Positions 32,801 through 35,800 of a stretch of 64,000 nt of DNA are shown here, in pieces. Position numbers and translations under genes: made by a program. The stretch is from Catajapyx aquilonaris. Its lineage: Eukaryota. The notes beneath the pieces were generated by a model. That model had not been told where the DNA came from, did not search any database, and saw only the letters and a list, made by a program, of their open reading frames with translations. The stretch spans positions 1 to 64,000 of the forward strand of contig JYFJ02001411.1 in NCBI GenBank assembly GCA_000934665.2, in the 5' to 3' direction. The stretch's first letter is position 1; every line of letters starts with the position of its first letter.

Positions 32801-35800
32801 ACATGTCACTGGGATCCCAAAGAATCCATTCATGCCATTCCCTCAATCAAAAGTTGTAGTTTTCTACTTTCACACTCCTGAGTTAGATCCCTATAGATCA
32901 GGCAGAATACTTTCACAACAGGAAGCGTATGAGTAAGTTCTCGACCATTCATGCAAAGATTTCACTTAGATTACTCTATTGCCTTCCACATGCACAAATT
33001 CAGTAAAAATGGGATCTGTTGCAAAGACAACAAAGAAGCAAGCCTTCTTGTGTGGTAAACACTACTTTATCATTATTACTAGTAGTAGTAGTAAGATGAA
33101 ACTGCCACATACCATTAGATTTTCCAAGGTCTTCTATGGGGTTGGAGTTAATATTACAATCTCACATGGTAGTGTTAGAAACACAATCAGCACCACAGTA
33201 CATACGTGTATAGATGGGCCTCCCTCTTCCCCTTCCTCCCCTTCCTCCCCCCCTTCCTCCTCCTCCTCTCCCGTTGACCTAGCCATCACATCGGCATAGC
33301 TCATGTACAGTAAGTCTTCCTGCAGTGCCCCACTCCTTTCAGTCATGGCACCCCGGCAGAAGGTAGTGACCAGCTGAGTCAAGGGGTCAGGTTTTCCTTC
33401 CTCCTCCTCTTCCTCCTTCTTCTTGAGCTCAGCATCCTCAAAGGTCTGGGTGAGGTCCTCGATCATCACTTCTTGTCCTACATTTTCATCAGCTAGCCAC
33501 AGCTCCCGATAGGTGCGCAAGAACAAATTGATGGCTCTGTGCCTGATATGAAAAGAAAATTAAAAACTGCGTCATACATTGAAGTTTGAAAGCTAATCAA
33601 GCTGTTCATAACGACTTTCTTTAACATAACTTAAAGCTACTGGGATGATAGCTGGTAGAAAATGGATACATAGGTCAATATTTTAATGAAAAATGTGTGG
33701 AATTAACACATTACAAATTGTATATCACTACCAAGTATTTTTAACTATCCACATATTATTTTTGTGAATTACTAGATGGGCCTGTTATTGCATAAGCTCC
33801 AAAAAACTGGAACTCACCTGGCCAAACTGTACAAAGGAATACTACGAAGGCATGCAAGGGCAGCCCGCTTTCGTGCAGCAGACAGAAGTCTCCTCCAACC
33901 ATAGCGGGATGGGCTCTGCTTGGAGGCCTACAGGTGATGAATCCACATGCAGGGAAGGGAAAAAGAAATGCATGACACACTTGGGGTCAGTTGGGTTAGA
34001 GGCAAACTCTTGTAAATGGGGCAAACACTTCAAGAGTATTGCATAATTTTTAGGGGGGTCAGTCCCATATCACGTTAGTCACGCATAAAGTAAAATTCCT
34101 GTTAATTTATTACTGTTAATCACTCTTGTTAGATGTAGCTCTTGTCCCATACCTTGGCATAGAATGTAAAGACTTCTGCATGAAGCAGGCAATGACGGCC
34201 CTCTTCCTCTGTGAGGACACCACCGAACGATATGCCCCTTTTGCTTGCTGCTGGGGGTGGTCAATCTGTGGGGGGCAGGTGGGGCAGGAAAAGAGAGGGC
34301 AGGGATAGTAGCGAATTTACCTAACCATAACTTTTGGAAACATGTTCTTCATTTTTGGACCACGTGGTGACAACCATGTCAAATTAGAGCATTTTTCTGG
34401 TTAACTGGAAGAGGTATTCCTGCAGTTCTAAATACAGAAATTGTCCCTGCAGTGGCATAACTCTGTTTAATTGAACTTTTCAGGTTTATACTTGCAAAGT
34501 CTACATACAGTCACTCACACTTTAAACTAGTGTCATTGTAAAATTCAGCTTGTTACTCTTCTTCGCATTATAAAATCAAGGAATACCTTTCCCTGTTAAC
34601 TGCACCTTTTACGACAAAACTCACCATATGAAGACCATACAGCACTTTGGCCATGGCAACAATCCTTTCCACCACCTCATCCATTGTTTGCACTTTGCCC
34701 TCAACTGCTACCTTTTGGCTTCCTAGCTTGGAGTATAGGTGATGTTGCCAAGACATTACATCTGACGGATCAATCTTGTCCGGAAGGGTGAGTTGGGTCT
34801 TTGCAAATTCCAATATGTCTGCCTCATGCATTTTCTAGAGAACATAATGCACATTAGGATCAGTTATAGTCTTTAAAAAAAAAAGCTAACTAACCTTCAA
34901 ATATCTATCCTTGCAATGTTGAACCAACTCTTGCTCACGACCAGCAAACAAGTTCAGACCAACTGGCAGAAGCCTCTTCAAGCAGGCCACCATCAAACTA
35001 GCAGCAAGTTCTTTGTCTTTGTCTCTCTTTTTATCCCTGTTCTTCTTTTTTTTAACCTGAAAGGGACAGATGAATACCTCATTTCATTCCAGGGATCAAT
35101 GACAAATATGTCCCATGGAAAGCAGCCATACAACTATAGCACAGTAGGACACACATGACTGAAAATAATCATCAAAGGGTGAGTATCATGATGCAACATC
35201 AAATAATATTATCAATGGTAAGTCACTCTGCAACAATAAGGGCTCTGAAAACTGAAAGGAAACAACATTGCAATAAATTTCAATAGCCGGTATATACATC
35301 TACAGGGCTACTGCACAGTTAACAACAAGTCAAACTTACCAATTGTCAGATTAAATCCACACAAGCACAGGGGAGAAGAGAGAGAGAGAGTGGGACAATA
35401 TACTCTAAAACTCCAAAGGTGATTAAAGTTGTCTAGAATATTTTGTTCAAGAAATTGTGTATCTCTATCCACAACTAGTTATACTGCTGATAATATGCAT
35501 TTCGTTCAGCATGTGCCAAAACATGCCCTCACTATGTTACTACAAAACTTTTCAATGTCTCTGAACGGCCTGGGTGTAATGTATTGTCAAAAACTGCACG
35601 TTTGGTGTAATTTTCATACCAATAAACTTGGCAGACTAGGCCAAGCAAATGCTTTGCCTTTCTTTGACCATGATAGTGACAGAGGCACTAGCAAGAATGG
35701 TAATAAAAATTCAGAAATGTAATTTTTTCCAGAACAGTACTTCCCTTCCAAAAATTAGCTCACATTCATATCAATTTAAACATCACAAACCTACATCAAA

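Follow-up and report, generated by a model that had tools for sequence, protein, structure and literature searches.

In a 64,000-nucleotide stretch of Catajapyx aquilonaris DNA (NCBI GenBank assembly GCA_000934665.2, contig JYFJ02001411.1, positions 1 to 64,000; the whole stretch is referred to below as the window), the minus strand was found to carry a ryanodine receptor (RyR) gene in which the calmodulin-binding helix is encoded by two adjacent homologous exons, A and B. The reading frame permits only one of them per mRNA. We consider it probable that the exon was duplicated in an early arthropod, that both copies were kept as alternative cassettes used one per transcript, and that the choice between them sets the calmodulin regulation of the channel. 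The two exons and the constitutive exons on either side of them are located as follows:

34625..34834, minus strand: upstream constitutive exon (UP), ending ..YGLHM in phase 0 at donor ATG/gtgagt; matches arthropod RyR in a tblastn search.
34153..34265, minus strand: exon A, the A-type calmodulin-site exon, 113 nt, with Tyr at anchor position 1 and Phe at anchor position 17.
33818..33927, minus strand: exon B, the B-type calmodulin-site exon, 110 nt, with Trp at anchor position 1 and Leu at anchor position 17.
33206..33542, minus strand: downstream constitutive exon (DOWN), starting atcag/G CAC AGA GCC.., its first base completing an Arg codon.

The 5′ border of UP at 34834 was placed using a ctctag acceptor and a stop-bounded open reading frame (ORF); its 3′ end at 34625 reads ..CTT CAT ATG/gtgagt. 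The 3′ border of DOWN at 33206 (CAC/gtatgt) was placed from the sequence and by comparison with relatives showing read-through at those residues. Exon A is bounded by cacag/ATT...CCAAG/gtatgg and encodes 37 residues plus 2 nt, and exon B is bounded by ctgtag/GCC...GCCAG/gtgagt and encodes 36 residues plus 2 nt. In exon B the ORF extends exactly from the acceptor TAG to a TGA within the donor; in the acceptor, a GCATGTGGATTCATCACCTGTAG spacer separates the pyrimidine tract from the AG. Each exon is entered in phase 0 and left 2 nt into an Arg codon, and after this shared split codon DOWN reads HRAINLF... Thus, A and B are adjacent homologous exons of the same phase, each with its own splice sites, as expected of a tandem-duplicated pair. 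The coordinates, lengths, phases and peptides given for them in a preliminary description of the window, made from the sequence alone, proved correct to the base.

Exons A and B together comprise 223 nt, and inclusion of both shifts the frame, as had been proposed, with a stop 90 codons past UP. When neither exon is included, a stop follows after 17 codons. Early stops upon joint inclusion and upon joint skipping were found both in the window and in the five other loci checked (where an intron interrupts the downstream exon of a locus, the stop position is approximate). Messages of either kind should therefore undergo nonsense-mediated decay, and the frame together with this decay is enough to explain why the two exons exclude each other.

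Searches against PDB sequences aligned exon A over its full length with RyR2 3576-3612 (E 1.1e-4) and exon B with the RyR1 calmodulin-site peptide 2bcx_B (E 1.2e-4) and with RyR2 3583-3611. Both exons are thus homologous, at the colinear position of the gene, to the vertebrate RyR calmodulin-binding domain (RyR1 3614-3643, PDB 2BCX; RyR2 ~3580-3612), with which they align end to end. Within the 64 kb window A and B were each other's sole significant match (tblastn E ~6e-4; the next match had an E of 0.37), and no third copy of the cassette was detected there by tblastn. In an hhalign comparison, a profile built from 10 B exons matched one built from 8 A exons with a probability of 95.5% (E 1.5e-8). 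The anatomy, these alignments and the stops described above support the proposal that A and B are homologous alternative calmodulin-site exons, of which the frame allows one per mRNA.

We take W3620 and F3636 of RyR1 to be the two lobe anchors in the crystal complex of the RyR1 peptide with calmodulin. In the alignments to RyR1 and RyR2 peptides, the Trp position (RyR1 W3620) is occupied by Tyr in A and Trp in B, the +16 position (anchor 17) by Phe in A and Leu in B, and the position of RyR1 L3624 by Val in A and Leu in B. The anchor pattern noted earlier, Tyr(1)/Phe(17) in A and Trp(1)/Leu(17) in B, is therefore borne out. Among relatives, anchor 1 is Trp in 9 of 10 B exons; in A exons it is Tyr (7/8) or Trp (1/8). 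Anchor 17 is Phe in every A exon (8/8) and Leu in B exons (9/10), the remaining B exon having Ile. The basic/hydrophobic pattern of a calmodulin site is retained in both exons. According to the abstract of one study, the W3620A substitution in RyR1 abolishes Ca-calmodulin binding, and L3624D abolishes binding of both forms of calmodulin (PMC2229515).

Metagenome contigs were scanned with the downstream exon. Twenty loci were recovered, nine of them with a complete interval from UP or A to DOWN. The order UP-A-B-DOWN was present in seven of the nine (L002, L007, L008, L015, L016, L018 and L019); since the peptides of L007, L008 and L015 are identical, five distinct sequences have this arrangement. 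In a further five loci (L009, L011, L013, L014 and L017) B was followed by DOWN, with A absent or out of reach, and six (L001, L005, L006, L010, L012 and L020) were uninformative. All A and B exons in these loci have AG/GT borders and matching phase. The length of exon A is 113 nt in 8 of 8 sequences, and exon B measures 101, 107, 110 or 113 nt, always 2 modulo 3. Identity between the A exon of the window and those of seven contigs is 62-81%; for the B exon of the window it is 40-69%, in comparison with nine B exons from contigs. Synonymous sites are saturated between loci (proportion of synonymous differences, pS, 0.66-0.97). The corresponding nonsynonymous proportion, pN, is 0.19-0.41 for B in 20 of 21 pairs and 0.10-0.39 for A. 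The combination of saturated pS and low pN shows that both exons are under selection at the protein level; judged by these values, B evolves somewhat faster than A.

The B exon of the window shares 19 of 36 residues with that of the sea spider Nymphon striatum and 20 of 33 with that of the louse Polyplax serrata, compared with 11 of 36 with its own neighbor, exon A. The A and B types remain separate across distant arthropods and thus form two old orthology groups. Sequence comparison points to a duplication that probably dates to early arthropods, most likely before chelicerates and pancrustaceans diverged. The earlier suggestion of an ancient rather than a new pair is upheld: it is in print for insects, it occurs on five further distinct arthropod-type contigs, and B-type exons are present in sea spider and louse gene models.

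These data bear on the idea that, in C. aquilonaris, splicing never includes exon B, which would be the dead remnant of an old duplication. The predominance of A among database proteins (detailed below) would fit it, as would the B acceptor with GCATGTGGATTCATCACCTGTAG between pyrimidine tract and AG. However, the B ORF is intact, bounded exactly by AG and GTGAGT and in the correct phase; its pN against six other B exons is far below the saturated pS; and with 19 of 36 residues in common with the sea spider B exon, it has persisted longer than 110 unconstrained nucleotides would last. We consider a relic highly improbable, and exon B is predicted to be used in C. aquilonaris.

A profile of the 10 B exons was compared with 1.84 billion representative sequences, and 28 matches were obtained at E up to 0.001. 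Apart from one unrelated repeat protein and three arthropod sequences of B type, these were 24 single, non-arthropod exons, several of them identical to the vertebrate peptides that aligned with A and B. Most of the 24 are genomic fragments with an acceptor-derived Q in front and read-through behind. The exon borders are apparently the same as in the arthropod pair, the Q standing before V/T-E-H-P and the read-through following ..LPR. The vertebrate-type site differs from the pair in that one exon has both sets of marks: all 24 combine the A-like V/T-E-H-P head with a B-like Trp and PLY-type tail (PLY, PLH or PVY). Trp occupies position 1 in 24 of 24; at position 17, there are 17 sequences with Phe and 7 with Leu. 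The seven Leu-17 relatives (P0119-P0125, P0142) read ..VVACLRMAPLYNLPR. This variation at position 17 is found between separate sequences, which presumably represent the paralogous genes RyR1, RyR2 and RyR3, and not between alternative exons.

Since Leu-17 occurs together with Trp in these single-exon relatives, the Trp/Leu combination of B is not peculiar to arthropods. The preliminary description had stated that each exon keeps one canonical anchor. The anchor residues it named are correct, but this framing needs amending, as the Trp/Leu pair of B is shared by 7 of the 24 non-arthropod exons, which places B near the canonical site and makes A the departure. In the simplest reading, a single ancestral exon bearing both sets of marks would have been duplicated in tandem; copy A would have kept the head and Phe and lost Trp, Leu-Leu and PLY, and copy B would have kept Trp, Leu-Leu and PLY, lost the head and gained Leu at position 17. 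Exon A is probably the more derived copy.

Both forms might instead be made and be biochemically equivalent, the copies persisting by dividing tissue- or stage-specific expression signals between them. The replaced anchor residues are all conservative and hydrophobic, and the presence of Trp/Leu at positions 1 and 17 in some single-exon relatives is in line with such equivalence. On the other hand, each type keeps its own residues across very distant arthropods (Phe-17 in 8/8 A exons, Leu in 9/10 B exons), and the retention of type-specific residues in both A and B points to type-specific constraint, which argues against equivalence. We therefore consider it quite unlikely that the two forms are interchangeable.

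The account that we favor is the following. The calmodulin-helix exon, equivalent to RyR1 3614-3643, would have been duplicated early in arthropods and both copies kept as cassettes. With one cassette chosen per transcript, the products would differ only in ~37 helix residues. The A form would present Tyr-x-x-Val-Val...Phe and lack the PLY tail; the B form would present Trp-x-x-Leu-Leu...Leu and keep the PLY tail of non-arthropod RyRs. By this comparison B is predicted to be a near-canonical calmodulin site, and A a weakened or differently docking one. Regulated exon choice would then set the strength or the mode of calmodulin regulation by tissue or developmental stage. A switch confined to the helix that binds calmodulin would offer a clean natural experiment on the regulation of RyR by calmodulin and could explain tissue differences in calcium release. 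It would also matter for attempts to express "the" insect RyR, the commonly modelled A form being the derived one.

The calmodulin-site pair is a further example of a known insect feature and not a new one. In Troczka et al. 2015 a second mutually exclusive RyR site is described at the calmodulin site, with predicted isoforms from Apis, Musca, Ceratitis and Drosophila; the site corresponds to M. persicae residues 3720-3756, encoded by exon 71, and the alternative exon is proposed to regulate calmodulin sensitivity (PMC4309888). The pair in insects is also in print in PMC6026295. The C. aquilonaris pair agrees with that described by Troczka et al. in protein position, in the size of the cassette (~37 residues) and in proposed meaning; the published pair rests on computationally predicted isoforms (PMC4309888). 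That paper is not the source of the age given here for the pair, or of the relation drawn to the single exon of non-arthropods; both come from the present analysis. The gain is modest: a further example, distant from named sequences, an early-arthropod age and evidence of constraint. In the literature on the site, supplements aside, no paper testing the A against the B form was found; the literature likewise yielded no binding data for the insect calmodulin-site forms and no usable crustacean- or Drosophila-specific work on the pair.

Several points weigh against the proposed role of the exon switch. Any of Tyr, Val and Leu can serve as a hydrophobic anchor, and calmodulin binding by the two forms may differ little. 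In loci L003 and L004 exon A stands alone, 70-83 nt before DOWN; the pair is thus not universal. In Myzus persicae the alternative exon could not be found, according to PMC4309888, and cDNA cloning studies of insect RyR found only a different pair, in the SPRY2 domain (PMC3787966, PMC3989282). A direct effect of calmodulin on an insect RyR has not been demonstrated, according to a 2021 review (PMC8301844). Finally, among database proteins that run from UP into the site, 15 continue into an A-type and one into a B-type sequence. The 15 comprise entries from the springtail Allacma, two beetles, the psyllid Diaphorina, the shrimp Penaeus, two spiders, the tick Ixodes and two from Rhipicephalus, together with five further fragments; three of the 15 end early. 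The sole UP-B-DOWN protein is the sea spider N. striatum model P0102. The dominance of A suggests that B may be a minor form. The proteins through the site are mostly gene models rather than cDNAs, and full-length RyR isoforms are longer than the length ranges covered by the protein searches. Each of the 16 carries exactly one cassette. Proteins that start inside a cassette include two A-type tails and three B-type sequences: P0011 of the louse P. serrata begins within the B exon, and B-type tails open P0013 of Acanthoscelides and P0018 of the aphid Melanaphis sacchari. The B-type head of P0011 had no match among proteins of 2394-5000 residues.

A second pair of duplicated exons in the same gene is relevant to what the switch may act on. 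The pair and its counterparts in two metagenome loci are located as follows:

29837-29772 and 29432-29367, minus strand: homologous 66-nt exons before EF-hand 1, with AG/GT borders, encoding 22 residues each.
7652-7717 and 7970-8035 of L002: the 66-nt pair, both copies with AG/GT borders.
11842-11907 and 12109-12174 of L019: the 66-nt pair, both copies with AG/GT borders.

The second copy in the window aligned with RyR1 4058-4078 and RyR2 4013-4033 in the PDB search; no PDB match was obtained for the first copy. The calmodulin-like EF-hand domain of RyR1 comprises residues 4064-4210, according to PMC5715910. By this alignment the helix encoded by the second copy immediately precedes EF-hand 1 and lies on the border of the calmodulin-like domain. 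The exon is present in a single copy in L003, L005, L007/L008 and L016, and joint inclusion of the two copies would stay in frame. No published description of this pair turned up, though none was specifically searched for.

The existence of this pair leads to another explanation, in which the calmodulin-site switch is real but tunes a different interaction of the helix, either with another partner (an S100-type protein, for example) or, within the molecule, with the EF-hand domain of the channel itself. The location of the 66-nt pair, at the helix before EF-hand 1, and its conservation in L002 and L019 are in agreement with such a role, as is the lack of a demonstrated direct calmodulin effect on insect RyR (PMC8301844). 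Against this, the segment encoded by A and B is the best-established calmodulin site of RyR, and both exons keep its basic/hydrophobic pattern. We consider a different partner unlikely and retain calmodulin regulation as the preferred reading.

The calmodulin-like domain is said to contact the calmodulin site of RyR, a finding attributed to Xiong et al. 2006; no usable literature on this contact was found. A more speculative extension, which we regard as improbable, is that the calmodulin-site pair and the 66-nt EF-hand-helix pair are two halves of a matched system. If this were the case, and if the choices were coordinated in each mRNA, both sides of the contact between calmodulin site and calmodulin-like domain would be swapped. 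Vertebrates have three RyR genes, and a single arthropod gene would then yield the diversity of Ca2+/calmodulin regulation that vertebrates obtain from the three.

Sequences that might direct the choice between A and B were also sought. The intron between UP and exon A contains an inverted repeat with the following arms:

34579..34600, minus strand: 5′ arm, 25-46 nt downstream of the UP donor, 19 of 22 positions complementary to 34400-34421.
34400..34421, minus strand: 3′ arm, ~135 nt upstream of the exon A acceptor.

This 22-nt repeat is unique in the window, where none is expected by chance, and its arms pair in both the minimum free energy and the centroid folds of the intron. The whole first intron folds no better than shuffled sequences (z +1.5). 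No counterpart of the repeat scored above shuffles in five other loci, and no convincing selector for B was present in the window, where only a 10-nt match to the B pyrimidine tract was seen. Such pairing could bring the UP donor close to exon A and so favor A, or the repeat could be a product of chance or a relic of a mobile element; lacking a counterpart in the five loci, it is best viewed as a local feature of uncertain role. It resembles the docking-site/selector arrangement of Dscam exon 6 in that a strong intronic repeat is placed as a docking site and an exon-A selector would be, but it differs in having no competing B selector and no comparable pairing in the five other loci. With one stem in the window, no convincing B selector and nothing comparable in those loci, assignment to the docking-site/selector class is not supported.

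Direct pairing of exon A with exon B was among the top duplexes in five of six loci. It is not supported as a mechanism, since cognate pairs (mean -46.6 kcal/mol) were hardly better than mismatched ones (-43.2 kcal/mol); the pairing is probably a by-product of Ala, Cys and Arg codons. A GCATG (Rbfox-type) motif upstream of and inside B was likewise not supported as a signal: it accompanies no more than 4 of the 11 B exons and 3 of the 8 A exons and is hence not conserved.

The assignment of the gene rests on ordered tblastn matches of minus-strand exons running from 53618 to 23903, with fragments of arthropod RyR, retrieved using the flanking exons, as queries. The matches extend upstream at least to 53618, and the C-terminus is at 23903. 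The query fragments contain Pfam domains PF08454, PF13499, PF00520 and PF06459 (P0005, P0008) and PF02026 (P0074, P0113). Similarity to RyR proteins is colinear across the central and channel regions, and PDB matches were to RyR1, RyR2 and RyR3 only, besides weak chance matches. Among named sequences, the flanking exons were most similar to hexapod records (best identity 73-87%); identity of the upstream exon to shrimp, spider and tick records was 60-66%. As judged from these comparisons, the window contains the 3′ two-thirds of an arthropod RyR gene of pancrustacean type. To our knowledge, arthropods have only one RyR gene.

A further tandem pair lies in the upstream part of the same gene:

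51312-51213 and 50948-50849, minus strand: mutually exclusive SPRY2-domain exons a and b, 100 nt each, 64% identical, each ending at /gtaagt.

This is the well-known SPRY2 a/b pair of insect RyR. Like the calmodulin-site pair, it is a tandem exon duplication within this gene, with exclusivity enforced by the frame; its two exons have the same length. It differs in affecting another domain (SPRY2, around residue 1140) and, unlike the calmodulin-site pair, in having experimental support: cDNA cloning in several insects has demonstrated that use of the SPRY2 exons is regulated by stage and tissue (PMC3787966, PMC3989282).

Elsewhere in the gene, at 43907-44147 of the window (minus strand), two adjacent short ORF pieces are alike, with 69% identity over 16 residues, and a second frame matches as well. 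This resemblance may reflect a small local duplication or a repeat within an RyR intron.

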